A stretch of 64,000 nucleotides of DNA. Origin: an uncultured Desulfobacterales bacterium (GTDB lineage: Bacteria > Desulfobacterota > Desulfobacteria > Desulfobacterales > B30-G6). The notes below the pieces were generated by a model. It worked only from the letters and a program-made list of their open reading frames with translations, was not told the DNA's origin and searched no databases. Positions 3,939 through 47,000 of this stretch are shown here, piece by piece (the first letter of the stretch is position 1; every line of letters begins with the position of its first letter). The DNA is taken from assembly GCA_964452555.1 (NCBI GenBank), contig CAYVMI010000019.1, forward strand, positions 6,288-70,287. Direction: 5' to 3'. The position numbers and the translations under genes were made by a program.

Positions 3939-4000
3939 CATTATCTATCTGCTGAAAACACTATAATTATTTAGATACTGCGGGCTAAAAAAAATAATAT

Positions 4001-4068
4001 TCTGTGTTTTGTTTTTAGTATGTTGTGTTTCGTAAGCCCAACACGAAACACCCAACACGAAACACCCA
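4001..4068 (+). repeat. Imperfect hairpin of GTGTTTCGT / ACGAAACAC words
   Basis: 4025-4033 GTGTTTCGT pairs with 4043-4051 ACGAAACAC. The ACACGAAACACCC word is duplicated at 4055-4067 and partly complements 4003-4012. Confidence 0.45.
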
Positions 4069-18551: not shown

Positions 18552-19658
18552 ATGAAAACAAAGATCAATTCAGCTTATCTTAAAAAATACCACCCTGCCC
18601 TCCTGCGCTGGTATGATAAAAATCATCGCAAGTTGCCCTGGCGGGAAACAGAAGACGCTTATTACATCTGGATCTCAGAGGTCATGCTGCAGCAGACTCA
18701 AGTTCGTACGGTTATCCCCTATTATTCCCGATTTATTAAAAGATTTCCCACTGTCCAAAATTTAGCCAATGCCCACCAACAAACCATACTAAAAATGTGG
18801 GAAGGACTTGGATACTACAGCCGCGCTCGCAACATGCACCGCGCAGCCAAAATTATAGTCCATGAATATAATGGCGTGATACCTCAAAACTGGACTCAGA
18901 TTCGTAGCCTGCCCGGCATAGGGGACTATATTGCCGCTGCTGTGCTCAGCATTGCAAATGACCAATCCTATGCGGTAGTGGATGGCAATGTTAAACGCGT
19001 TTTTTCGAGGCTTTTCTGTATAAGCTCACCCACAAATCATGCTTCCGCGAAAAAGGAGTTTAATCTCATCGCTGAAAAACTTCTCCATGAGATGGAATCA
19101 GGAAAATATAACCAGGCGGTCATGGAACTGGGGGCCTTAATCTGTACCCCAAGAAATCCTGGTTGTAATAGTTGTCCCCTCAACTTCCTATGTGACGCTT
19201 TCCGGGATTCCTCAGTTGCAGATTTTCCCCAGAGAAATAAATCCAAACCAACTCCATCCCATCTATTGGCAACGGGTGTAATTGTTAAGGAGAATAAAAT
19301 TCTGATAACTCAGCGGCCGGAAAATGGTCTTTTAGGAGGTCTGTGGGAATTTCCGGGAGGGCAGATTAAAGTTGGAGAGGACGCCCAAGAAGTATGCAAA
19401 CGGTCTATCAAGAAATCAACCGGGCTTAATATCGAAATACGTGATTATTTGACGTCCGTTAAGCACGCATATACGCATTTTAAAATAAAAATGGATGTTT
19501 TTCTCTGCCACACGAATTCATTTGCGGTCGAATTAGACGGACCGATGGGCTATCGCTGGATCGATATTGATGATATTCATAAATACCCATTGCATAAGGC
19601 CAATCACAAGTTTCTGCCACGTGTTCGTGACGCATTGAAGAACCTTCAGGCGGGTTAG
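18552..19658 (+). CDS. mutY: A/G-specific adenine DNA glycosylase with C-terminal NUDIX-like domain
   Basis: HhH-GPD core, Fe-S loop CTPRNPGCNSCPLNFLC, MutT-like C-terminal region. Confidence 0.92.
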   Translation: MKTKINSAYLKKYHPALLRWYDKNHRKLPWRETEDAYYIWISEVMLQQTQVRTVIPYYSRFIKRFPTVQNLANAHQQTILKMWEGLGYYSRARNMHRAAKIIVHEYNGVIPQNWTQIRSLPGIGDYIAAAVLSIANDQSYAVVDGNVKRVFSRLFCISSPTNHASAKKEFNLIAEKLLHEMESGKYNQAVMELGALICTPRNPGCNSCPLNFLCDAFRDSSVADFPQRNKSKPTPSHLLATGVIVKENKILITQRPENGLLGGLWEFPGGQIKVGEDAQEVCKRSIKKSTGLNIEIRDYLTSVKHAYTHFKIKMDVFLCHTNSFAVELDGPMGYRWIDIDDIHKYPLHKANHKFLPRVRDALKNLQAG

Positions 19659-19667
19659 AATGCTGTA

Positions 19668-19706
19668 TTTTGGTTTATTGGGTTCATTGGATTCGTTGAG
19701 TTAAAC
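19668..19706 (+). repeat. Solo GT-rich arm of the four-helix-bundle cassette repeat family
   Basis: TTTATTGGGTTCATTGG (17 nt) is the exact reverse complement of part of the AC-rich arm at 22956-22990. It ends in GAGTTAAACAA, like the left arm at 22504-22545. Confidence 0.6.
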
Positions 19707-19794
19707 AAATTGCTGGCATGCAATGACGTTATAAATAGGTCATAGCTGATAGGTCCTGGGCTCGTATTGCGTTCCGCTTTTGGTTTGATCGCTA

Positions 19795-19861
19795 TCGGTA
19801 TCGCTATCGGAATTGAAAAAGCAGGATCCGACACCGATTTTGATACCGATGGCGATACCGA
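19795..19861 (+). repeat. Hairpin of GATACCGA/TCGGTATC words
   Basis: 19795-19810 pairs with 19846-19861: 16 bp with a single U:G on the plus strand. Confidence 0.65.
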
Positions 19862-19933
19862 CCTCACAGCTACCTAACAGCCTACAGCCTAAACACCTAA
19901 AAGGCTGTTTGTTAATGGAGGTATCGTTAATTT

Positions 19934-20815
19934 ATGCGCGAACAACATTTCGGACCTATTTGGTTCATCCCCGGTGAAAATAAAGGTAAATATCCATTCT
20001 GCCATTCAATCTACCTCGAAGGCCCTGGCATCTTAATCGATCCGGCTTCGGATCGAAAGAGACTGATGGCCTTGAAGGACTCTCCGGGTGTTCAGGCGGT
20101 ATGGCTGAGCCATTGGCATGAGGATCATTTTCTGCACCTCGATTTATTCGAAGGTGTACCGCTTTCCATTACGAAAGCCGATGCCCCAACCTTATCGAGT
20201 ATCGAAGCTTTTTTGAATGGATATGGGGTTGAACCACAAGATCGCGAGATGTGGCGCAAACTGGCTGTGGACATGTTTCATTTTCGGCCAAGGAAACCCG
20301 ATCAATATTTGATTACGAATAAATCTCATCTATTTGGATCACTTAAAATAGATATATTAGCCGCCCCAGGGCATACCCCCGGCAACATCGCCTTGCATTT
20401 TCCAAATCAAGATGTACTTTTTATAGGCGATTATGATTTAACGCCCTTTGGGCCCTGGTACGGCGACGTGGATTCTAATATTCAGCAGACCATAGAATCA
20501 GTAAGGATGCTTCGCAAGTTTCAGGCCACAACTATTCTGACATCACATGAGCAGGGAATTTTCGAATCACCACCTGATGATATATGGAATCGATATCTGA
20601 ATGTTATAGCTGAACGTGAAAATAAATTGCTGGAGGCCCTGTCGACACCCTGCAGCATGGATGATATCGTCAATAAATGGATCGTTTACCGTAAGCCACG
20701 TGAACCGTTGCCGTTCTATACGTTTGCTGAAAAAGCCTTGATGCGAAAGCATTTAGCGGATTTGATCAATCGCGAGGTGGTTATAAAGGAAGACAGAAAA
20801 TATTCAAGGCTATAA
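19934..20815 (+). CDS. MBL-fold metallo-hydrolase
   Basis: SHWHEDHF (HxHxDH) motif with later His/Asp ligand contexts. Confidence 0.88.
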   Translation: MREQHFGPIWFIPGENKGKYPFCHSIYLEGPGILIDPASDRKRLMALKDSPGVQAVWLSHWHEDHFLHLDLFEGVPLSITKADAPTLSSIEAFLNGYGVEPQDREMWRKLAVDMFHFRPRKPDQYLITNKSHLFGSLKIDILAAPGHTPGNIALHFPNQDVLFIGDYDLTPFGPWYGDVDSNIQQTIESVRMLRKFQATTILTSHEQGIFESPPDDIWNRYLNVIAERENKLLEALSTPCSMDDIVNKWIVYRKPREPLPFYTFAEKALMRKHLADLINREVVIKEDRKYSRL

Positions 20816-20928: not shown

Positions 20929-21321
20929 ATGGATACAAAAATCAACAGCGTTGACTACCTGAGAAAAATAACCGTTTCCTTGGAAATGGGAACATCCGCG
21001 GAAGAAATGGATCTAAGTTCTGCGTCCAGTGAGTTTCAATTCATATACGGTGTTGGTACCCAAGGAATTTGCCTGTTCGAAAAGGCACTTTTTGGGAAAC
21101 AACCAGGGGAAGCCGTTGTCCTGCCAGTGGAAATTACAAACGTGAAAGACTTTTTCGGTCACTTGTTGCCGTCTATTCGCCCAATCTTGCCGCCAGCATC
21201 CTTTTTCTACTTAAAATCGAATTTAATTGCTGTCGATCTGGTAGAAAATCGGGAAGTTGTCCAGGCAATCGCTGACGGCAGGGGTTTATGTGCTTGTGAT
21301 TGCGGCTGCGGGTGTGACTGA
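20929..21321 (+). CDS. Hypothetical protein with an alternating-Cys C-terminal tail (CACDCGCGCD); possible degenerate FKBP/SlyD-like core
   Basis: 130-aa ORF. FQFIYGVGTQGICLFEKALFGKQPGE resembles the FKBP F-x-F-x-x-G-x-G...AL-x-G-x-x-x-GE pattern. Five Cys sit at alternate positions in the last 10 residues. Confidence 0.6.
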   Translation: MDTKINSVDYLRKITVSLEMGTSAEEMDLSSASSEFQFIYGVGTQGICLFEKALFGKQPGEAVVLPVEITNVKDFFGHLLPSIRPILPPASFFYLKSNLIAVDLVENREVVQAIADGRGLCACDCGCGCD

Positions 21322-21394: not shown

Positions 21395-21610
21395 ATGATG
21401 CCGCCCCTAAAGATAAGGCGGATAACCGCGGCCTGGCTTAAAACAGGCATTGCAATGCAACTACGGGCTTACCCTTTTGGATCCATAATCTTTTCGGCTA
21501 GTAATGGCAAGCTTATCAGCACTGAACTGTTCGAATGCTCACCCGCAGGTGGTAAGGTGAGTCCCAATGCTGTGTTCAAATCCATGCTTGCAAAAAATAT
21601 CAAAAATTAG
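21395..21610 (+). CDS. Hypothetical small protein (71 aa), doubtful
   Basis: The only ORF in a 390-bp gap. GAGGA about 8 nt upstream. No recognisable motif. Confidence 0.25.
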   Translation: MMPPLKIRRITAAWLKTGIAMQLRAYPFGSIIFSASNGKLISTELFECSPAGGKVSPNAVFKSMLAKNIKN

Positions 21611-21712
21611 TAGATGCTGCTAAATTATTCATAATTACCGGCAGTTTCTCAACATATTGGTCAACCCAGCGAACTCAATGAAGCCAATAAGCCCGACAAA
21701 TCGCTAACAGCC

Positions 21713-22489
21713 ATGCAATCCGAAAAAATAGTTAGTCTTATCGTCAGTGAACTGACACAATATTGCGACAATGCCGGTCTGAGCGGCTTCGTGGTGGGTG
21801 TGTCCGGGGGCATTGATTCGGCGGTCACTTCCACACTATGTGCCCATACAGGTAAGCCGGTGATTGTGCTCAACATGCCTATCCGCCAGGCAAAACAGCA
21901 AGATTCACTATCCTCCCGGCATATGCAATGGCTTCAAAGTCGATTTGAGAATGTTCGCGGTTTGCGCCTAGATCTCACAAGCCCATTTGATTCCCTGCAT
22001 GCTACCTGGCCAGTTGAAATCCAAGATGATCTAACCATGGCAAACACACGATCACGACTGCGCATGCTGACACTATACGCAATAGCCGGCCACCATCGAT
22101 TTTTAGTTGCTGGCACCGGCAACAAAGTAGAAGATTTCGGTGTTGGTTTTTTTACCAAGTACGGTGACGGTGGGGTCGATATTTCTCCGATCGCCGATCT
22201 GTTAAAATCAGAGGTTGGCACGTTGGGTAAATATCTCGGTATCCTCGATGAGATAATCAAAGCACCACCGACCGATGGTTTGTGGGCCGATAATCGTACC
22301 GACGAAAGTCAAATCGGAGCAAGCTATCCAGAACTGGAATGGGCTATGGGCACAGCCGAACAAAACCCCGGAGATAAATTAACTCAGCGTCAGGAAGAAG
22401 TTATCTCCATTTACCGCAGATTTCGCGAACGCAACCGTCATAAAATGGAACCCATCCCGGTGATTAAGATACCGGATGAGTTTCGATAA
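21713..22489 (+). CDS. nadE: Ammonia-dependent NAD+ synthetase
   Basis: SGGIDSAV PP-loop; NadE-like length and sequence. Confidence 0.92.
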   Translation: MQSEKIVSLIVSELTQYCDNAGLSGFVVGVSGGIDSAVTSTLCAHTGKPVIVLNMPIRQAKQQDSLSSRHMQWLQSRFENVRGLRLDLTSPFDSLHATWPVEIQDDLTMANTRSRLRMLTLYAIAGHHRFLVAGTGNKVEDFGVGFFTKYGDGGVDISPIADLLKSEVGTLGKYLGILDEIIKAPPTDGLWADNRTDESQIGASYPELEWAMGTAEQNPGDKLTQRQEEVISIYRRFRERNRHKMEPIPVIKIPDEFR

Positions 22490-22503
22490 TAGCAACTGAA
22501 TGT

Positions 22504-22990
22504 TTTTTGAGTTCGTTGAGTTTATTGTGTTTATTAAGTTAAACAATGGGTATATCGATTAAAAGATTTGAAGAAATTGATGCATGGCAAGCATCACGAG
22601 AATTAACCAGATTCGTATATAGTGCAATCAACCGTAACGAAAGGTTTCGTAAGGATTTCAGGCTCTCAAATCAAATTCAAGGTGCAGCCATATCAACAAT
22701 GTCAAATATAGCTGAAGGATTTTCAAGAAAAAGCAATAAGGAATTTATTCAATTCCTATTTATTTCTAAAAGTTCTGCAGCTGAAATACAAAGCCAACTG
22801 TATATTGCACTTGACCAAAATTATATTGACGAAGCTACTTTTGATATCATCTACGAACAAGCTGAAAAGGTATCAAAGCTCAACTCTGGCTTCATAAAAT
22901 ACTTGCGAACTAAGATTTAATTCAGTGTAAAATTTATTCCATTTCAAATAAGTGGCAACTCAAATAACCCAATGAACCCAATAAACATAA
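22504..22990 (+). other. IVS-like cassette 1: GT-rich left arm, four-helix-bundle ORF, AC-rich right arm
   Basis: Left arm 22504-22541 (GAGTTCGTTGAGTTTATTGTGTTTATT) is imperfectly complementary to right arm 22956-22990 (CAACTCAAATAACCCAATGAACCCAATAAAC). Confidence 0.6.
22546..22920 (+). CDS. Four-helix-bundle protein (23S rRNA intervening-sequence protein / Avd-like family)
   Basis: 124 aa with SNIAEGFSR and SKSSAAEIQSQL motifs typical of the family. Paralog at 30651-31025. Confidence 0.9.
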   Translation: MGISIKRFEEIDAWQASRELTRFVYSAINRNERFRKDFRLSNQIQGAAISTMSNIAEGFSRKSNKEFIQFLFISKSSAAEIQSQLYIALDQNYIDEATFDIIYEQAEKVSKLNSGFIKYLRTKI

Positions 22991-23463
22991 AAGCCGGATA
23001 TTTCCCAGGCACCATCGGCAGGATTGCGGAAATGCATGCCCGCTATTATAGTTTGCATTGGAACTTTGGTGTCTATTTTGAAGCCAAAGTGGCATCAGAG
23101 CTGTCAGAGTTTGCTGGCAGATTTGATGAACAACGAGATGGATTCTGGACAGCTTGGGAGTCTGATCGTGTTGAGGGATCCCTAATAATCGATGGCATTA
23201 AGGCCGATTCAGAAGGTGCTCATTTGCGTTGGTATATCGTTTCCGAAAAGATGCGTGGTTACGGAACCGGCGACAAGCTTCTCTCCCTTGCTATGCAACA
23301 CTGTCGCATACAAAATTTTTCTAATATTTACCTTTGGACCTTTGCCGGATTGGACTCGGCACGGCACCTATATGAAAAACATGGTTTCAGCCTGGTTCAC
23401 GAACAAAGCGGCGATCAGTGGGGTACGCCGGTTACAGAGCAAAAGTTTGAGTGTTATCTCTGA
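22972..23463 (+). CDS. GNAT family N-acetyltransferase
   Basis: MRGYGTGDKLL acetyl-CoA-binding motif. Its ATG lies inside the AC-rich repeat arm (CCAATGAACCC). Confidence 0.85.
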   Translation: MNPINIKAGYFPGTIGRIAEMHARYYSLHWNFGVYFEAKVASELSEFAGRFDEQRDGFWTAWESDRVEGSLIIDGIKADSEGAHLRWYIVSEKMRGYGTGDKLLSLAMQHCRIQNFSNIYLWTFAGLDSARHLYEKHGFSLVHEQSGDQWGTPVTEQKFECYL

Positions 23464-23464
23464 A

Positions 23465-23555
23465 AAAGCTTGGATGCCGGGATGCCAGAAAGCTGGGATG
23501 CTGCCAATAGCTACAAGTAAGATGCAGCGTCCAGGCATCCTTGCTTTCCAGCTTT
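23465..23555 (+). repeat. Imperfect hairpin of GGATGCC / GGCATCC words
   Basis: 23495-23504 pairs with 23524-23533, GGATGCC 23480-23486 with GGCATCC 23534-23540, and AAAGCTTGG with CCAGCTTT. Confidence 0.5.
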
Positions 23556-23601
23556 ATAGCAAAGAAATAGCGAAAAAAATTTGAAGACAGAGATTGTTTA
23601 A

Positions 23602-24294
23602 ATGAAAACGACACAATTAAAAAGCAAAATTGCGAGGTTCATGCGTGGCTGGGGTTTTTCCATTATCGCCGCAGTATTGATCGCCACCTCATTTAAATCC
23701 GCCATTGCCGATTGGAATGATGTGCCCACCGGCTCTATGATTCCTACCATTCTCGCGGGAGACAGGGTGTTTATCAACAAGCTGTCCTATGGCCTAAAAG
23801 TACCCTATACTACCTGGCATATTTTACGGTGGCACACACCCAATCGCGGCGACATCGTCGTTTTTTATTCGCCCGTAGATGGCAAACGATTAATCAAGAG
23901 ACTAATCGGCATTCCCGGTGATGAAATTGCTTTGTATCGCAATCGCCTGTTTTTAAATGGCAAGCCGCTTCAATATCAAAATGCTCAAGAAAGCGTAAAT
24001 AAAAGCCGACTTTCAAAAATAGAGCATCAGTATCTAATTGAAAATTTGGCTGGAGTGCGGCACTCTGTCATGTTTACTGCGCTGAGAAGCCCGCTTGATT
24101 CCTTTGATCCCATCATCGTCCCTCCTAACAAAGTGTTTGTCATGGGTGATAACCGTAACAACTCGGCGGATTCACGCGTTTTTGGATTTGTTGAAATCGA
24201 CCAGGTTGTGGGTCGCGCTACGCATATCGCCCTAAGTCGAGAAGGATCATTTTTACATCCGCGGTGGCATCGTTTTTTTCAGAAATTGTTGTAG
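23602..24294 (+). CDS. lepB: Signal peptidase I
   Basis: N-terminal TM segment, GSMIPTI Ser box, KRLIGIPGD Lys box, GDNRNNSADSR. Confidence 0.92.
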   Translation: MKTTQLKSKIARFMRGWGFSIIAAVLIATSFKSAIADWNDVPTGSMIPTILAGDRVFINKLSYGLKVPYTTWHILRWHTPNRGDIVVFYSPVDGKRLIKRLIGIPGDEIALYRNRLFLNGKPLQYQNAQESVNKSRLSKIEHQYLIENLAGVRHSVMFTALRSPLDSFDPIIVPPNKVFVMGDNRNNSADSRVFGFVEIDQVVGRATHIALSREGSFLHPRWHRFFQKLL

Positions 24295-26734: not shown

Positions 26735-26856
26735 CCTTGCGTTAGCCTGCTGGAAGACTATCCGGCGGGGATGCCATAAAGCTGCTAATTGCGAATCGTC
26801 TCTGGCGGCATTTAGGCATCCCGGTGTTCTAGCTTAACAGCTATTTTTCTACTTCT

Positions 26857-26940
26857 CTCAACAAACTCAACGAACCCAAAAAAATCAACCAACAAGACAA
26901 CTCAATGAACCTAAAAAAAACAACAAACTCAATAAACGCG
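26857..26940 (+). repeat. Solo AC-rich arm (CAACAAACTCAACGAACCC... words) overlapping the livF start
   Basis: Same word vocabulary as the right arms at 22956-22990 and 31059-31103. No local GT-rich partner was seen. Confidence 0.55.
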
Positions 26941-27714
26941 AACCCTCTGCTCCGCATAGCCAATATCGAGACACTCTATTTCGATCGGATCTATGCGTTG
27001 CACGGGCTTTCATTAACGATCCAAGAGCAAGAAATTTTCGCGGTACTGGGCCCCAATGGTGCCGGCAAGACAACGTTGTTAAAAACTATCGCGGGACTTT
27101 TGAAGGACCAGCCCAACAAAGGGATTATCGAATTTATGGGCAAGCGGATTCATCGGCGCCCACCCGAACGTGTTGCTAACCTCGGAATTGTTTATGTGCC
27201 CGAAGACAGAGGGCTGTTTCGAGAGCTAACCGTGAAAGAGAACCTGGACATCGGTTGCTGGGGAAGAAAAGGTAAGGAAGTACTGGACGACCTTGAATTC
27301 GTATACACCTTATTTCCGATCTTAAAAGAGCGTGGCAAACAGCAAGCCGAGACGCTATCAGGCGGGCAACAACAGATGCTTGCGGTTGCCAGAGCCATGC
27401 TGCGAAGACCCAAGCTGCTTATGCTGGACGAGCCTTCCTTGGGATTGGCACCTCTGGTTGCCAAGGATGTTTATGAGGCTCTGGTCAAGATCAGTAAAAC
27501 CGGAACAACCATTCTGTTAGTGGAACAAAATGCTAAAATGGCCTTAGGTATTGCCGACTATGGTTTTATAATGGAATCCGGCCGCATCGTCCTGGAAGGA
27601 TCTTCAACGGATCTTAAAGAGAATAAGGATGTCCAGGAGCTTTATCTCGGAATCGGACAAGACGATGAATCTTCCACCGGCTTTAGGCTGTATAAGAAAA
27701 GGAGAACCTGGTGA
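26905..27714 (+). CDS. livF: ABC transporter ATP-binding protein, LivF type
   Basis: Walker A GPNGAGKTT, signature LSGGQQQML, Walker B LLMLDEPS. The first roughly 13 codons are encoded by the AC-rich repeat, so the start is somewhat uncertain. Confidence 0.88.
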   Translation: MNLKKTTNSINANPLLRIANIETLYFDRIYALHGLSLTIQEQEIFAVLGPNGAGKTTLLKTIAGLLKDQPNKGIIEFMGKRIHRRPPERVANLGIVYVPEDRGLFRELTVKENLDIGCWGRKGKEVLDDLEFVYTLFPILKERGKQQAETLSGGQQQMLAVARAMLRRPKLLMLDEPSLGLAPLVAKDVYEALVKISKTGTTILLVEQNAKMALGIADYGFIMESGRIVLEGSSTDLKENKDVQELYLGIGQDDESSTGFRLYKKRRTW

Positions 27715-29623: not shown

Positions 29624-30607
29624 GTGTTGGATCTAATCGAAAGTTACGCTGAAGAATTAAAGCTCATACGTAAAGCCGGCACTAAAGCCTGGGTATTTGC
29701 TGTCATTATTGCCTTATTTCTGCTACCCCTCTATGCACCTGAAGATTTTGTTTACGTTGCAACCATCATCGCCATATTTTCCATCGGTATTATCGGTCAA
29801 AACATCCTGATTGGCTATACCGGCCAAATCTCCTTTGCTCAGGCGGGATTCTTTTGCATCGGGGCCTTTGCTTTCGGGCATCTATACCGGGCTGGTGTAC
29901 CCTGGCCCCTGAGTGTATTAGCCGCCGGTATAATTACCGGATTTGTGGGTATCCCGGTGGGATTTCCATCTCTCAGGCTCAAAGGTCCTTACCTGGCCAT
30001 TGCTACCATGGGATTTGGCATTGCTGTGTATCAGATCTTCGTCAACACCCCCCTACTCTCCGGCGGACGCATGGGATTGATGATAACCAAATTAGAGCCG
30101 ATTTTCGGGCTCTCGACAGTCAATACGTATTACTATATCAATTTGATCATCGCTTCCATATTTACACTGGTGGCCTACAATATTGTTTCCTCATACATGG
30201 GACGCGCCTTTATCGCCATCCGTGACAATGACATTGCCGCTGAAGTTCTGGGAGTTAATCTGACTCGATACAAATTGATGTCTTTTGCCATTAGCTCTTT
30301 TTATGTGGGCATCCAGGGCGGCCTATATGCCTTATTTCTGGGCTATTTGGAACCTAACATGTTCACCTTTATGGAAACCATTACCTTTCTCGTTGCGGTT
30401 ATCGTGGGAGGGCTGGCTTCTGTGGAAGGTGCCATCATGGGGGCGGCCTTTGTAATTTTAATTCCGACGCGTCTTAGCGATCTGCGTGAATTTATTCCGG
30501 TTGTGTACGGTGTCGTCATAATTCTCATTCTGATATTTCAACCCGGCGGCTTGGCCGGCCTGTGGATGAAAATTCGGCTTTATTTTCGCAATTGGCCATT
30601 CCGTTAG
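29624..30607 (+). CDS. livM: ABC transporter permease, LivM type
   Basis: Polytopic hydrophobic protein with LivM-like sequence. GTG start with GGGAGG SD. Confidence 0.88.
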   Translation: MLDLIESYAEELKLIRKAGTKAWVFAVIIALFLLPLYAPEDFVYVATIIAIFSIGIIGQNILIGYTGQISFAQAGFFCIGAFAFGHLYRAGVPWPLSVLAAGIITGFVGIPVGFPSLRLKGPYLAIATMGFGIAVYQIFVNTPLLSGGRMGLMITKLEPIFGLSTVNTYYYINLIIASIFTLVAYNIVSSYMGRAFIAIRDNDIAAEVLGVNLTRYKLMSFAISSFYVGIQGGLYALFLGYLEPNMFTFMETITFLVAVIVGGLASVEGAIMGAAFVILIPTRLSDLREFIPVVYGVVIILILIFQPGGLAGLWMKIRLYFRNWPFR

Positions 30608-31103
30608 TTCTTTGAGTTTATTGTGTTTATTGAGATTATTGAGTTGAATAATGGGAATGTCGATAAAAAGTTTTGAAGAAATTGATGCATGGAAAGCATC
30701 TCGAACGTTGACCAGATTCGTTTATGGCGCAATCAAAAGCAATGAACATTTCAAGAGGGATTTCAGGCTTTCTAACCAAATTCAAGGTGCGGCCATATCA
30801 ACAATGTCAAACATAGCGGAAGGATTCTCAAGAAGAAGCAATAAAGAATTTATTCAATTTTTATTTATTTCTAAAAGCTCTGCTGCTGAAATACAAAGCC
30901 AGTTGTATGTGGCCCTTGACCAAAACTACATTGATGAAGACACATTTAATATGATTTACGCACAAGCAGAAAAAGTATCAAAGCTCAATTCTGGATTCAT
31001 TAAATATCTTCGCACAAAAATTTAATCGTTCGAAAGGTGGCTCAAACACATAGAATCGTCAACAAAACAAACACAATGAACTCAACAAACACAATAAACA
31101 CAT
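30608..31103 (+). other. IVS-like cassette 2: GT-rich left arm, four-helix-bundle ORF, AC-rich right arm, inserted between livM and livH
   Basis: Left arm 30608-30647 against right arm 31059-31103. An approximately 33-nt alignment has about 6 mismatches by eye. Confidence 0.6.
30651..31025 (+). CDS. Four-helix-bundle protein (23S rRNA intervening-sequence protein / Avd-like family), second copy
   Basis: 124 aa. By my count it differs from the 22546-22920 product at about 16 residues. Confidence 0.9.
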   Translation: MGMSIKSFEEIDAWKASRTLTRFVYGAIKSNEHFKRDFRLSNQIQGAAISTMSNIAEGFSRRSNKEFIQFLFISKSSAAEIQSQLYVALDQNYIDEDTFNMIYAQAEKVSKLNSGFIKYLRTKI

Positions 31104-31113
31104 AAGGTATCAT

Positions 31114-31998
31114 ATGGAACGCGTTCTACAGTATATGGTTTCCGGTCTCTCCCAAGGCAGTCTGTATGCATTGGTAGCAATTGGCGTAGTCCTCATCTAC
31201 CGATCCAACCGTGTATTAAATTTTGCACATGGTGATGTTACCACTGCGGGTGCTTTTATCGCGCTGGCCTTCATGCTCATGAACATGAACTGGTGGTTGG
31301 CCGCCATATTCGCTTTGGTTTTAGGCGCATTGATCTCCATACTGTTCTATTTCGTGATTTTAATTCCGGCCCAACGCCGTGAAGCTACCCATTTAGGCCA
31401 AGTTATCCTAACTTTGGGCTTCGGGCTTATTCTGCAAGGACTAATTCTCAGATTCTGCAATACGGCTGAACCGCAAAATTTTCCCTTCCCTCTTTCCGAT
31501 GTAAAAGTATTCACCTTCGGAAACATAATAATAAGCCATCTCAGTTTGGGTACGCTCATTGTAGGCATAGCAGGAAGCCTGCTTTTTTATCTTTTGATCC
31601 AGAAAACCCGGATCGGACTTGCCATGCGGGCCACATCCGAAAATCTTCCTGCGGCCCAGACCTTGGGCATTCCGACCCGGAGCATACTGGCGCTTTCCTG
31701 GGCCATGGCGGCTTTCACAGGCATACTCGCTGGATTATTTCTGGCAGCCCAACTTCTCATCGACCCATTCTATATGTTGGAACCTTTCTTAAAAGGGTTT
31801 GCTGCCGCTATCCTGGGTGGACTCAACAGTTTGCCCGGGGCCATTGTTGGGGGTTTACTCCTGGGGGTGGTGGAAGCCCTCTTCGGCGGTTTTATTTCGG
31901 TTGCTTTTAAGAATACGCTCGCATTTCTGATAATCATTGTTGTTTTGGTGTTCCGACCCGAAGGTTTGCTTGGCAAGGAATTTATTGAAAGAATATAA
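31114..31998 (+). CDS. livH: ABC transporter permease, LivH type
   Basis: Polytopic hydrophobic protein with LivH-like sequence. Confidence 0.88.
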   Translation: MERVLQYMVSGLSQGSLYALVAIGVVLIYRSNRVLNFAHGDVTTAGAFIALAFMLMNMNWWLAAIFALVLGALISILFYFVILIPAQRREATHLGQVILTLGFGLILQGLILRFCNTAEPQNFPFPLSDVKVFTFGNIIISHLSLGTLIVGIAGSLLFYLLIQKTRIGLAMRATSENLPAAQTLGIPTRSILALSWAMAAFTGILAGLFLAAQLLIDPFYMLEPFLKGFAAAILGGLNSLPGAIVGGLLLGVVEALFGGFISVAFKNTLAFLIIIVVLVFRPEGLLGKEFIERI

Positions 31999-41107: not shown

Positions 41108-42469
41108 TTACAGACGCCAGTAATGGAGATCATATTTGGCGGACTCCTTTAGGCCAAACATAGATTTTACATCAATCAGGCAACCACCCGGAACAAGTTT
41201 CCGGGTCAATCCATCCATACCTTCATTCGCGTAAAAAGAGTGCGACACCGCCAGAACAACCGCGTCCAGATCCTGTAAGCTTTCATATGAAATCAATTCT
41301 ATATCATAGAAAGCCTTGGCCTCTTCCGGATTAGCCATGGGATCATGAACCAGCACTTCGATTCCATAAGTGCTCAGCTCTTTGACGATGTCCGGCACAC
41401 GTGAATTCCTTAAATCCGGGCAGTTTTCCTTAAATGTCAGCCCCATGACACCTACCCTGCTCTCCTTTATGTGCAAATCGGCAGAGATCATCATCTTCAC
41501 TGTCTTTTCAGCAACATATTTTCCCATATTGTCGTTGATGCGGCGACCGGCCAATATAATCTCCGGATGATAGCCCACCAATTCTGCTTTGTGGGTCAAG
41601 TAGTAAGGATCCACGCCGATACAGTGCCCACCCACCAAACCGGGGCTGAATTTCAAAAAGTTCCACTTGGAACCGGCTGCTTCCAATACATTCACTGTGT
41701 CAATGTCCAACTTGTCAAAAATTATGGAGAGTTCGTTTATCAATGCAATATTGAGATCCCTTTGTATGTTCTCAATAACTTTGGCCGCCTCGGCTTCTTT
41801 AATGCTTTCGGTTCGATGAACTCCGGCTTCAATGATTGACTCATATAAAACAGCAACGGCATCCAAGGTCGGTGCATCATCTCCGGAAACAACCTTGGTG
41901 ATGCGCGTTAGGGTGTGTTCCTTGTCCCCCGGATTAATTCGCTCCGGCGAATAGCCCACATGAAAATCCTTTTTCCAGACCAAGCCCGATTCCTTTTCCA
42001 GAATGGGTACACAAACCTCTTCTGTGGCCCCTGGATAAACTGTGGATTCAAAAATGATGACGGCCCCCTTTTTCATGTTCTGACCTACGATGCTGGATGC
42101 GGACATCAAAGGCGTCAAATCCGGCTGCCGGGCTGCATCGATTGGTGTTGGTACCGCCACGATGATGTAATTTGCCGTTCCCAGGGCCGCTGCATCCGCT
42201 GTTACCCTCAGATGGATCGCTTCTTTGAATTCCGCTTTGGAAACTTCACCGGTCACATCAACTTGCCGGTTTAACTGATCTATTTTAGCCGCATCGAGAT
42301 CGAATCCGATCGTGTCGATTCGTTTGCCGAAAGTTACCGCCAAGGGCAGTCCGACATAGCCCAGACCGATCACGCCGACAGTCGCATCTCCTTGCGGGCG
42401 ATCGGACATCATTGAATTTTGCACGTTTTGTTTTGGTGTGGCCAGGTTTGATGTGTTTATTGTATTCAT
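41108..42469 (-). CDS. Nucleotide-sugar dehydrogenase (UDP-glucose/GDP-mannose dehydrogenase family; UDP-HexNAc dehydrogenase-like)
   Basis: GVIGLGYVGLPLA NAD motif, GGHCIGVDPYY catalytic Cys. GGAAGGA SD. Confidence 0.9.
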   Translation of the reverse strand: MNTINTSNLATPKQNVQNSMMSDRPQGDATVGVIGLGYVGLPLAVTFGKRIDTIGFDLDAAKIDQLNRQVDVTGEVSKAEFKEAIHLRVTADAAALGTANYIIVAVPTPIDAARQPDLTPLMSASSIVGQNMKKGAVIIFESTVYPGATEEVCVPILEKESGLVWKKDFHVGYSPERINPGDKEHTLTRITKVVSGDDAPTLDAVAVLYESIIEAGVHRTESIKEAEAAKVIENIQRDLNIALINELSIIFDKLDIDTVNVLEAAGSKWNFLKFSPGLVGGHCIGVDPYYLTHKAELVGYHPEIILAGRRINDNMGKYVAEKTVKMMISADLHIKESRVGVMGLTFKENCPDLRNSRVPDIVKELSTYGIEVLVHDPMANPEEAKAFYDIELISYESLQDLDAVVLAVSHSFYANEGMDGLTRKLVPGGCLIDVKSMFGLKESAKYDLHYWRL

Positions 42470-42736
42470 TGAATCCTTCCGTACATGTGGTTAATTGGAT
42501 AGACTGTTATTACCTTAAAGAGACCTGATCTACCGTGAAAGCCTCCGTTGCAGCAAAAGCTTAGTGGATGCCATGCGAGATAAACCTTAATGGAAAAACG
42601 AGCCGAACCCCTGAACAGGCTGCATCCGATAGATCGATCATAATCCATACACAATCAAGGCGTTTGGATGCCTTGATTCAACTATATTATTATGGTTCAT
42701 GGTAAAGCGCATGGCAACGTATATGATGTGGCCCAA

Positions 42737-44057: not shown

Positions 44058-47000
44058 CTATTCAAAAATAACGGATCGAATAAAGCAGTCTTCAACATCG
44101 TCCTCTGGATCATCGTCATCGTCACCTCCGCCGCCGCCACCGCCGCCAGTGTTCGTTACGACGGCCGCATGCACGCCGGAAAAATGGTATACCTTGAGCT
44201 GAATACCGGAGGCACTGTTCACTCGTGAGCCTGCCACCATCCATCCCGGCAGACCGGAACTCCCATCGGTGTCCGAAGCCAGAACCCACTCCCCATTGTA
44301 AATATAAATCTGTACGGTCGCGGCACTCACACCTTGGGTAGGAATAATCAGTTTTACCGGTGTACTGAATATGGCCGGCGGCTGCACATTGAGCAGATCA
44401 CCGAGTTCATTTACGTTGGCCGAGGGTAAAAAATCCGGAATGCCGTCTGTGGGCGCCAGGACCGGTATAATGGGTTCGGCGTCATTGTAGAGTACTTTGG
44501 CACCTTGCATAATCCCCGAATCAACCTGATACCCTGCATTGTAGGTATGGTCAGGATCGGTCAGATCCGGATCGGCAACATCCACGGTACTGTAATCGGG
44601 AATAGATGGATCCGTGGGCGCACTGTTGTGTTCTGCCTCGGTTTCAACACGGAAACGGTAATCCGCGGTGGCTATATGCCCATCGACATTGCTTACCGTG
44701 GCCGTAATTTCCACGGACGCGTCAAAGGGAAAGTCGCCATTGGTGTCCAAAGAACGGTCATATACAAACCAGAAAGCCGTCACAGCGGTGTCCGGATCGC
44801 TGGCATCCATCTTGATGATCCTCACAACGCTCGCGTCACCCAGATTGACCTCATAGGAAGTGTTGACCGTATCGTCCACTTCGAGAACCACACTGTTGTT
44901 GTCGGTTGTGTCGATACCGGCACTATTTGATATATAAACGCCAAAAGAAGCATTGCTGGGCACACGGAAGGCGTCATCGATGCCGGCCCGGTGATGGGGT
45001 ACGCTGTCCAGCAAATCAGGAGGTGACGGGAAGTCGGTGTCATCATCCGGATCGGTGTTGCTGATAAACTCCTCGTAGTTGGTATACCCATCCGAGTCAA
45101 AATCACCGGTTTTACCTTCGCCGGCAGATGTATTCGTGCTGGTGGCATCCAGTCCGTTTTCAGTCTCCCAGTCGTCCGGCAGATCGTCACCATCATTGTC
45201 ATTTATTTTCACCGTAGCAGGCTCCACATAATACCCGTCGGCGTCGGTGATGTCCTGAGTCAAGGTCAGGGTGTAGATGGTGTAGGCTGTCACGTCATCG
45301 TAGGACAGACGATAAGTACTGGTTTCACCAATGGAACTCTCCAGTTCGATGGAATTGCCAGGATTTGCAAAGTTCATGCTGGGCGTGATTAAATAATACG
45401 CTTCCCCTTCTGCATTCTGCATATTTAATTCGTCATAGGTAATCTCAATATAGTCAGCTGCGGCGTTTGCCACTGGATATTTGGTAGGATGCTGGGCATC
45501 AGGGTACACGATAATCGAGGGCGGATCCGCCTCGCCAGTGGTCGTCAGCCTTTCGATGGATGGGTTGACATCCGAGCCACTTGTTTCAAAGTTATTGCCA
45601 CTGGCGTCGGTGGAGCTTGCCCGCACATAATAAAGTGTGCTGGGCGACAGTCCGGTCAGCGTCACACTATGCTGCATTGTCAAGCCGCCGTCATTTTCAC
45701 TAAAAGGGTAATCCTGCCACACGGCACTGCCAGTCCCGTACCGGACCTGGCTGTTACCGGGTTCGTCCGTAATCCAGGTTACCAAAACGGTAGTGCCAGA
45801 TAAGGCCTGCACAGCCATATTGGAAATCTGGGGAGCACTCACATCGGGACCGTCGTCGGTGGTAAAATTAACTTCTGCTGAGGGCGTTGGTCCGTTCCCT
45901 TTGGCATCTGTCGAACCTACCATGAAATAATAGGGTGTGTCGGGCTGCAGGTTGGCTAAAGTCACGCTGTGGTTCAGAACCATATCAACATCGTTTTCGA
46001 AAATTGCGTAAGTGTTCCAGGTACCCGTAGACACATCGTAACGCACCTGGCTGTTGCCGGGTTCATCTGTGGTCCAGGTAATAAGGGCAGTGCTGTTGGT
46101 AACCCAGGCAACGGTCACATCTGTTATGACCGGAGCTGTGGTGTCCAAATCCACTGCCGTGGTAAAAGTGGATTCGCTGCTGGGGTTGGTGGCATCCTGG
46201 TTCAGTTCGGGGCCGTTTCCGGCGGCATCCGTTGAGCCCACGCGATAGTAATAAGCTGTAGAACCTGTCAAGCCGGTTAGCGTTACACTATGATGGGTTC
46301 TTAAAACAGCATCGTCCTCGCTGTCTGAATAGTTTGCCCAGGTGCTGACGGTTTCACCAAAACGAACGATACTGTTAGACGGTTCATCGGTTTGCCACTC
46401 GATGATGGCGGAGCCGGCATCCACGGCCGTTACGGATGGGCCTGCGATGATTCTCGGCGCTTCCTCATCTGCGGCCATGTCAGTAATGAAAGTTTCCTCG
46501 GCAAAGGGATTGTTGTTGTCAGTATCGGCGGGGTCAGGTCCATTACCGGCGGCATCCGTTGAGCCTACCATGAAATAAAAGGTGCATCCACCGGCATCAC
46601 AATCCTGAAACTGGCTCAAGCCGGTTATGGTAACACTATGGCTGGTCACCATATCACTGTCATTCTCGACATATCCATATGCAATCCAACCAAGAGATCC
46701 CTCATCATAGCGAACCTCACTGGTGCTGGGTTCATCCGTCTCCCATTCAATTGTGGCCGAATCGAGGGACTTATCAGTAACGGTGGGCGGAGTGGTAATC
46801 CGCGGCGCTTCCATATCCGGATCAGGATCTGTCCTGAAGGTGATTTCGGAAGATGAAGCAGGTCCATTGCCGGCGGCATCCGTACTGCCAACCCGTAAGT
46901 AATAGAGCGTATCGCCGCTTAGCCCCACCAGGGTAACTGTATGTGCCGTTACCAGCTCTCCATCGTTTTCGCTGAAATCGAAGCCGCCCCACTCTGCCGT

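Follow-up and report, generated by a model that had tools for sequence, protein, structure and literature searches.

The four-helix-bundle (4HB) proteins of family PF05635 are without known function outside diversity-generating retroelements (DGRs). The open reading frames (ORFs) of long intervening sequences (IVSs) in rRNA have been unexplained since 1993, and the homologues of these ORFs rank among the large orphan families of bacterial genomes. The IVS of Coxiella measures 428-444 nt, is closed by a 28-bp terminal stem that RNase III cuts mid-stem, bears three tandem GACAGAT heptamers just before the S23p start, and has a GC content below that of its host (PMC4990558). In DGRs, the Avd protein binds RNA stem-loops, and the DGR RNAs pair sequences on either side of the template repeat (TR) (bioRxiv 10.1101/2023.10.23.563531). 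Short tandem repeats of another kind, the TAACTGA heptamer arrays, occur in Beggiatoaceae, cyanobacteria and Bacteroidetes, with S1, Csp or CsrA as proposed binders (PMC4679880). Described here is a 4HB gene (gene A) bounded by inverted arrays of short tandem repeats, located between nadE and a GNAT acetyltransferase gene in a 64,000-nt stretch of an uncultured Desulfobacterales genome (contig CAYVMI010000019.1, positions 6,288 to 70,287; hereafter the window), together with a second copy of the whole arrangement in the same window. The cassette layout provides a link between rRNA IVSs, stand-alone Avd-like proteins and the intergenic arrays of heptamers and nonamers that have gone unexplained.

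Judged from its sequence, gene A is an ordinary member of PF05635/TIGR02436. The 124-aa product of ORF 22546-22920 matches PF05635, "23S rRNA-intervening sequence protein", over residues 9-113 (E 6e-30, 104 bits, cut-off 33.8), the sole Pfam family that it matches, and TIGR02436, "four helix bundle protein" (E 8e-29, 100 bits, cut-off 24); a phmmer search of PDB sequences also revealed homology over residues 8-105 to the solved pentameric 4HB protein XCC0516 (2GSC; E 2.3e-11). Profile matches of the gene and its neighbours confirmed the setting described in a first-pass annotation of the stretch, in which an rRNA-IVS-family gene sits between nadE and GNAT and is co-oriented with them. A signal peptidase gene (lepB) follows GNAT, with nadE, gene A, GNAT and lepB all on the plus strand, and a consensus scan of 21500-23700 gave no promoter-like or terminator-like site on that strand. 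The nadE and 4HB genes of the source organism were also found on a Logan contig of run SRR8146440 (L081/L082), an independent assembly, which breaks directly after the 4HB gene, as expected of a repeated cassette; 4HB cassettes probably fragment metagenome assemblies.

Two features that the first-pass annotation did not mention are that the arms of the cassette are tandem 9-nt repeats and that a second complete cassette (B), reached via recurring arm motifs, occupies positions 30608-31113 between livM-type and livH-type genes. Together the two copies define a discrete low-GC module of about 490 bp in short spacers between co-oriented operon genes. Cassettes A and B align at 87% from arm to arm, with homology stopping at the outer arm edges, and at 32-34% GC they lie below both the window as a whole (46%) and the neighbouring genes (46-48%). 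The two 4HB proteins are separated by 37 synonymous and 16 non-synonymous codon differences (dN/dS 0.07, dS 1.06), values from which the copies are taken to be old and both genes to be under strong purifying selection. Searches of the whole window with the cassette (tblastn and blastn) returned only these two intact 4HB genes and no pseudogene remnants. Coordinates of both cassettes and of related features are collected in Table 1.

The arms of cassette A are inverted arrays of a degenerate nonamer, with four copies of TATTGNGTT on the left and the complement of that unit on the right. The Tandem Repeats Finder (TRF) program reported GTTTATTGA x4.3 at 22502-22540 and AACCCAATA x2.3 at 22966-22986, and the composition is correspondingly skewed (G+T at 30 of 38 positions in the left arm, A+C at 29 of 35 in the right). 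The left arm begins 11 nt past the nadE stop and extends to 4 nt short of the 4HB start codon. A repeat search paired 22500-22531 with 22957-22988 (32 nt, 78% complementary) and also aligned the arms in shifted registers, because each is an array of a degenerate 9-nt unit. The arm duplex has a computed energy of -22.7 kcal/mol, where shuffles that preserve dinucleotides give -14.7 +/- 3.0 (z -2.6; 17 of 1000 were as good), and both the minimum free energy (MFE) and the centroid folds of a 511-nt stretch pair the arms, so that the hairpin-bounded geometry with a GT-rich and an AC-rich arm, claimed at first pass, is upheld. In cassette B the 33-nt arms are 85% complementary and form a duplex of -30.1 kcal/mol (z -4.1), again paired in both MFE and centroid folds; the comparison with shuffled controls, on which the earlier annotation had staked its claim, thus favours pairing in both copies. 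The arms also cross-pair between the copies (-33.3 and -28.7 kcal/mol), and matches to the arm motifs elsewhere in the window greatly exceed the number expected by chance (4 where 0 were expected, and 9 where 0.1 were expected). Terminal complementary sequences enclosing the rest of the element, by which an IVS is recognized, are therefore present in cassettes A and B alike.

Comparison with relatives shows where the inserted DNA begins and ends. A livM-based scan of Desulfobacterales metagenomes yielded 80 related loci (L083-L162), about 45% of which have an array-free livM-livH spacer of only 15-30 nt, from which it follows that the module at this site is an insertion. One relative (L084; livM 90% identical at the amino acid level) carries an orthologous cassette between livM and livH with the right junction as in B (…acacataagg…ATGgaa), a left array of four GT nonamers, a right array of about 25 AC nonamers, and a 4HB protein only 72% identical to that of B. 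In the closest relative (L086; livM 91%) this site is occupied by an octamer-type array (GCTGGGAA/GCTGGGAT…), after which come a different 4HB-like ORF (MGEDRWKKLEVWQIADDLAYQIYQVTKR…) and the contig end, and others have unrelated inverted-repeat-bearing inserts of 100-640 nt. The variety of inserts marks this spacer as an insertion hot spot; across the scanned loci it ranges from 15 to 640 nt, many of the inserts being small, unrelated and bearing inverted repeats. Given the limits of A/B homology and the array-free empty sites, the arrays of the module are terminal inverted repeats (TIRs) at the ends of inserted DNA, as in a miniature inverted-repeat transposable element (MITE).

At the nadE-GNAT site, relatives found via GNAT orthologues retain the order nadE-GNAT-lepB-livK without the 4HB gene and without the GT array, and their nadE-GNAT spacers (207-331 nt) contain other repeat elements. 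Homology between these cassette-less relatives and the window ends on the left at the nadE stop codon, so that this boundary coincides with the left arm. On the right it starts at the GNAT start codon (about 12 nt earlier in L169), and ATGAAyhCAATAAACATmAAA constitutes GNAT's own codons 1-7 in all of those relatives; the conservation of these codons where there is no cassette indicates that the right arm owes its outer 17-21 nt to resident sequence and not to import. The expectation that insertion boundaries would match the arms was therefore met by the livM-livH site, with its array-free empty spacers, and by the left side at nadE-GNAT, while the right side at nadE-GNAT departs from it. With this, the first-pass view that the right arm, as part of the cassette, supplies the first GNAT codons had to be corrected, since 22972-22992 is resident GNAT coding sequence in cassette-less relatives.

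The layout was further examined in the 80 nearest 4HB homologues (48-72% identity, one genome per species). The best source relatives are Desulfobacterales metagenome-assembled genomes, and the hosts include Desulfobacterota, Omnitrophota, Planctomycetota, Nitrospirota, Chloroflexota and Acidobacteriota, as well as Binatia, Verrucomicrobiota, Gammaproteobacteria, Chlorobi, Cyanobacteria and others, more than ten phyla overall. Autocorrelation of the flanks peaks at lags of 7 and 9, arrays of period 6-11 are found within 150 nt of the 4HB gene at 5.4 per kb compared with 0.41 per kb elsewhere (13-fold), and one or more such arrays accompany the gene in 73 of the 80 loci. Cognate flanks have on average 7.0 inverted 7-mers in common, against 1.3 for non-cognate flanks and 1.1 for shifted controls, and three or more occur in 68% of flanks (15-18% in controls). 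Among 75 loci classified by array configuration, 37 are inverted, 21 inverted plus direct, 8 direct only, and 9 have none; the upstream arm is the GT-rich one in 46 of 58, and the best ungapped arm has a median length of 29 nt. Neighbouring genes are mostly co-oriented with the 4HB gene (upstream 66/75, downstream 59/71, both 50/66). The median distance is 9 nt from the upstream stop to the beginning of the left arm and 14 nt from the end of the right arm to the downstream start; in 19% the start codon falls within the arm. In 77 of the 80 loci the GC content of the 4HB ORF is below that of its flanks, by a mean of 7.4 points. The gene-plus-inverted-array layout thus recurs across many phyla and is a property of the protein family, not of one genome.

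The repeat units themselves vary with the protein. The unit is 9 nt long in the nearest proteins, whatever the host phylum, and mostly 7 nt in more distant ones, and a GTT/GTC core is found in 46 of 60 upstream and 51 of 60 downstream arrays (the latter as reverse complement); GTT alone occurs in 35 of 60 upstream units, where 17 would be expected in shuffled units. Inverted array pairs lacking an ORF, with loops of up to 120 nt, are present in 13 of the 80 loci, and 13 such pairs, in 11 loci, have their units in common with the local 4HB arms. Conserved 23S/16S probes, which do not cover the helix 9/25 regions, detected no 23S sequence near the gene in any of the 80 loci, and operon spacers therefore look to be the usual home of the family, with rDNA a special case. 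No close 4HB relatives were found in viral contigs (IMG/VR), and a PADLOC defence-system scan gave no match.

Table 1. Positions in the window of the two cassettes, their host genes and other repeat features
Feature	Coordinates	Strand	Remarks
Left arm, cassette A	22500..22541	+	GT-rich, ~4.3 degenerate nonamers: GAGTTCGTT GAGTTTATT GTGTTTATT AAGTT
4HB gene A	22546..22920	+	124 aa, pI 9.2, GC 34% vs 46% for window
Spacer 3' of 4HB ORF A	22921..22955	+	unconserved between both cassette copies
Right arm, cassette A	22956..22992	+	AC-rich nonamers: AACTCAAAT AACCCAATG AACCCAATA AACAT
Left arm, cassette B	30608..30648	+	GT-rich nonamers, ~3.8 copies (array 30612-30645), starts 1 nt past livM stop
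4HB gene B	30651..31025	+	124 aa, 87% identical to A
Right arm, cassette B	31043..31102	+	AC-rich nonamers, ~4.7 copies, ends 11 nt before livH start
nadE (NAD+ synthase)	21713..22489	+	upstream host gene of cassette A; profile matches
GNAT acetyltransferase	22972..23463	+	downstream host gene of cassette A; profile matches
livM-type ABC permease	29624..30607	+	upstream host gene of cassette B; branched-chain amino-acid transport
livH-type ABC permease	31114..31998	+	downstream host gene of cassette B; branched-chain amino-acid transport
GT-type nonamer array	19658..19702	+	directly past mutY stop; brackets with AC array 21663-21698, other genes inside
AC-type nonamer array	21663..21698	+	15 nt before nadE start; position kept in relatives, 3 to 13 copies
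ORF-less hairpin, GNAT-lepB spacer	23468..23555	+	arms of octamer repeats, GCTGGGAT type
Solo AC-type nonamer array	26855..26943	+	~9 units, holds start codon of ABC ATPase ORF 26905-27714
AC-type nonamers	42449..42475	-	hold start codon of UDP-glucose dehydrogenase (41108-42469, minus strand)

Of the described systems, the ORF-bearing 23S IVSs of Leptospira and Coxiella burnetii (S23p) are the closest in build. In both, the loop holds a gene of the same protein family in sense orientation, and the sizes are similar (428-444 nt for the Coxiella IVS, about 490 nt for the cassette), as are the terminal inverted repeats of roughly 28-33 nt, here 32-33-nt arms whose tandem nonamers continue as far as the start codon. 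Like the Coxiella IVS, the cassette has short tandem repeats between its 5' arm and the start codon, has a GC content below that of its host, and would be transcribed with its host, without a detected promoter of its own. The differences are that rRNA IVSs reside in helix 9, 25 or 45 of 23S rRNA, whereas the host here is the spacer of an mRNA operon; that the stem of the Coxiella IVS is a nearly perfect 28 bp, whereas the arms here are long arrays of 9-mers with 15-22% mismatches; and that the Coxiella ORF is decaying, whereas the cassette protein is under strong purifying selection. RNase III excision has been demonstrated for the Coxiella IVS and is a prediction for the present element. An rRNA IVS in the proper sense was rejected on location, there being no rRNA in the 64-kb window. 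The earlier description of the cassette as an rRNA IVS transplanted into an mRNA context accordingly stands in part: the likeness to an IVS, above all that of Coxiella, is closer than had been noted, and the implied rRNA origin is not borne out by the surroundings of the 80 homologues, as far as the 23S probes covered them.

The likeness to Avd of DGRs lies in the homologous 4HB family, the basic protein, the RNA stem-loop encoded beside its own gene to which Avd binds, and the pairing of distal flanking sequences in the DGR RNA; the differences are a reverse transcriptase that was not found, a marginal similarity to Avd profiles, and the housekeeping-operon context. Repeat scans of the cassette region detected nonamer arrays only and no pair of template and variable repeats (TR/VR), although no search aimed at TR/VR was made. 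In REP/RAYT (REPIN) systems, each RAYT gene lies between inverted copies of a dispersed repeat on which it acts; these systems are said to have been described by Nunvar et al. in 2010 and by Bertels and Rainey in 2011. The cassette likewise has a gene flanked by inverted short repeats that are also dispersed as ORF-less hairpins in spacers, but its product is a helical bundle of 124 aa instead of an HUH Y1 (IS200/IS605-like) transposase, its repeats form tandem arrays of 7-10-nt units instead of single palindromes, and there are several gene copies per genome. A REP/RAYT system proper was set aside on the protein, which matches PF05635 only. An integron cassette was likewise rejected, since there is no attC/Rfam match and no integrase in the scanned ORFs, and the complementary sequences flank the ORF about 425 nt apart. 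By analogy, then, the element most resembles an ORF-bearing IVS placed in mRNA spacers, and its genome-level logic resembles that of REP/RAYT.

A further resemblance is to the TAACTGA and cyanobacterial short tandemly repeated repetitive (STRR) arrays, which likewise consist of 7-9-nt units, repeated from a few to tens of times, and lie shortly before the start codons of unrelated genes without canonical ribosome-binding sites (PMC4679880). They differ from the arrays seen here in that the latter form inverted pairs around a specific gene family, and no 4HB/IVS protein is mentioned for the former (PMC4679880). The 4HB family is also unmentioned in the papers on TAACTGA and G-quadruplex repeats, and no paper was found that links it to flanking tandem repeats outside the Coxiella IVS, in a literature coverage that is incomplete and leaves a prior description possible.

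The interpretation favoured here, to which a probability of about 0.55 is assigned, is that of an IVS-type cassette whose protein would bind its repeat arrays. The cassette would be transcribed by read-through of the host operon, and in the transcript the arrays would pair into an imperfect A.U-rich stem of ~30 bp with the ORF looped out, bringing the upstream stop and the downstream start back to about 20 nt apart. For cassette B, the livM stop and livH start would come to lie about 15 nt apart after pairing, similar to the empty spacer. The same geometry follows trivially from arms that are the ends of DNA in a short spacer, and it is therefore evidence on the boundary and not on function. 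By analogy with the Coxiella IVS, the stem would be a plausible RNase III substrate, and its processing is put forward tentatively, at somewhat below even odds. The pentameric protein may bind the repeat arrays in its own cassette as well as those in the ORF-less hairpins, a proposal ventured with the same reserve. It draws on the binding by Avd of a stem-loop beside its own gene, the REP/RAYT logic, the co-variation of unit and protein, and the conserved GTY core. Such binding could serve spread, maintenance or regulation.

Several observations weigh against this interpretation. The stems are weak in absolute terms, as random window pairs (in sequence of 46% GC) average -23.6 kcal/mol; because the arms are AT-rich, an excess is seen only against composition-matched shuffles. 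Whole-cassette fold z-scores are unremarkable (-1.8 for A, -1.2 for B). Wobble asymmetry was not observed, sense G.U mismatches numbering 50 and A.C mismatches 57 in 56 arm pairs, and selection for a stem in the sense RNA is consequently not visible. The arms can be very unequal, as with the 4 and ~25 units of L084, direct arrays only are carried by 8 of the 75 loci, and half of the cassette A right arm is resident GNAT sequence. AC arrays also stand solo at the 5' ends of unrelated genes, and the conservation of their positions among relatives indicates that they have an existence of their own. Target-site duplications were not recognizable at either site, the spacers being too diverged, the scan of 36 large ORFs yielded no mobility enzyme, and the long divergence of A and B (dS about 1) gives no sign of recent transposition. 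The idea that about five repeats per arm reflect the pentamer was tried and dropped: the median is ~5 beside the gene and 3.9 elsewhere, in output of TRF, which has a detection floor, and a copy number that barely differs from elsewhere says nothing on binding by a pentamer.

The solo AC arrays suggest a rather different account, in which the nonamer arrays would be generic, slippage-prone leader or spacer elements of the lineage, the 4HB gene would merely lie among them, and the hairpin would be a functionless by-product; unstructured AC-rich leaders permitting Shine-Dalgarno-independent initiation would be one example. AC arrays do lie at the 5' ends of nadE, GNAT, livF, livH and the minus-strand dehydrogenase gene, several of them holding the start codon, at positions that are conserved while copy number varies in relatives, with GNAT orthologues translating 1-4 units as (NPx)n. 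The genes behind the arrays are without obvious Shine-Dalgarno sequences, the wobble test shows no RNA-stem signature, and a similar proposal exists for TAACTGA arrays (PMC4679880). Yet GT arrays are not generic: every strong one in the window has a downstream AC partner, with two of the three lying ahead of a 4HB gene. The 13-fold enrichment of arrays is beside 4HB genes, and the inverted arrangement, polarity included, is encountered in phylum after phylum although units and periods differ; since the empty livM-livH sites are array-free, the arrays must have arrived with the gene. The leader account, with its initiation variant, is for these reasons regarded as unlikely. Somewhat more unlikely still is a MITE-like non-autonomous DNA transposon, whose arrays would be TIRs composed of multiple binding sites for a transposase encoded elsewhere, with the 4HB gene as passenger or accessory. 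Such an element would agree with discrete insertion, inverted termini within a few nt of the flanking genes, low GC, the ORF-less versions, and the occurrence in the same spacer of different cassette types and unrelated inverted-repeat inserts in relatives, and the mismatches without strand bias are those expected of double-stranded DNA sites. But a transposase or integrase was not found among the 36 large ORFs scanned, nor was a target-site duplication recognizable, the upstream position of the GT arm (46/58) and the co-orientation with the host are unexpected for a symmetric DNA transposon, the 4HB gene is strongly selected and nearly always the cargo, and the A and B copies are old (dS about 1).

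The surroundings of the gene also bear on whether its protein might be an Avd left over from an orphan or decayed DGR after loss of the reverse transcriptase and of the template and variable repeats. The first-pass annotation had stated that neither rRNA nor a reverse transcriptase lies nearby, and this was corroborated: no Rfam match at the gathering threshold and no tRNA (ARAGORN) was found in the whole 64 kb, and a Pfam scan of 36 large ORFs (1-56 kb), which proved to be metabolic, transport, signalling and polysaccharide genes, detected no reverse transcriptase, transposase or integrase domain. PF05635 is indeed the family of Avd (PMC10053308), and the 4HB protein has a marginal PHROG match to "Avd protein of DGR" (E 0.009). 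There are, on the other side, two copies in housekeeping operons, a negative PADLOC result, no close relatives in viral contigs, and an array-bounded layout in 73 of 80 relatives that is not a DGR layout. A DGR remnant, like chance, is effectively excluded.

A much broader proposal, more doubtful than the IVS-type cassette itself, is that IVS/Avd-family 4HB proteins are sequence-specific partners of short-tandem-repeat hairpins in bacterial operon spacers. Each 4HB subtype would then recognize its own 7-10-nt unit, as the nonamer and octamer types at the same livM-livH site in sister lineages might illustrate; gene-bearing cassettes would be "autonomous", with ORF-less hairpins and solo arrays as derivatives or targets, and ORF-bearing rRNA IVSs would be the same cassettes that had landed in rDNA. 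If true, this would provide a function for a very large orphan family and a candidate factor for the unexplained STRR and TAACTGA-like arrays.

The arrays also matter for annotation, as host genes obtain from them their start codons and (NPx)n extensions at the N-terminus. The GNAT ATG lies inside the right arm of cassette A, of which 22972-22992 doubles as GNAT codons 1-7. The source annotation of the protein (P0001, 143 aa, 100% identical) begins at M21; GNAT orthologues of 160+ aa conserve residues 5-20, and the start at 22972, which the first-pass annotation had placed in the arm, is therefore the better one and the source annotation mis-starts. The GNAT orthologues (P0001-P0047) begin with a variable (NPx)n peptide (MNPINIK, MNPINPTNIR, MNPTNPTNPITG…) that consists of AC nonamers translated in 1 to 4 copies; distant orthologues begin differently. 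Solo AC arrays can similarly supply the start and first codons of other genes, as in the ABC ATPase (MNLKKTTNSINANP…) and the UDP-glucose dehydrogenase (MNTINTSN…), and the ATGs of an array are all in one frame because its period is 9.

Further repeat elements occur in the window and its relatives. The GT array past mutY and the AC array before nadE enclose a metallo-beta-lactamase-fold gene (19934-20815), a 130-aa ORF and a 71-aa ORF, and the GT array is followed by a hairpin of hexamer repeats (ATCGCT/ATCGGT) at 19788-19870. In L163 (990-1500), homologues of the mutY-side GT array and hexamer hairpin lie only ~260 nt from the pre-nadE AC array, and the metallo-beta-lactamase-fold gene and the two ORFs are thus an indel inside the GT…AC bracket. 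The 130-aa ORF (20929-21321) has no Pfam, NCBIfam or PADLOC match and ends in a Cys-rich C-terminal tail (…CACDCGCGCD). ORF-less octamer hairpins of the GCTGGGAT / GGAAGGCT type were seen in other operon spacers, at 2039-2066 of the window and at 2294-2500 of L169, and the octamer type of the GNAT-lepB hairpin also precedes the different 4HB gene of L086 (3979-4116). A GT-rich/AC-rich hairpin at 3998-4068 (GTGTTTCGT…ACGAAACAC; 14-nt unit CCCAACACGAAACA x2.3) lies directly upstream of an enoyl-CoA hydratase gene (4087). Elsewhere in the window, a 1958-aa protein encoded on the minus strand (44058-49934) has about 12 purple-acid-phosphatase-N / fibronectin-III-like repeats, and its gene adjoins sulfotransferase, glycosyltransferase and aminotransferase genes in what looks like a cell-surface polysaccharide region.

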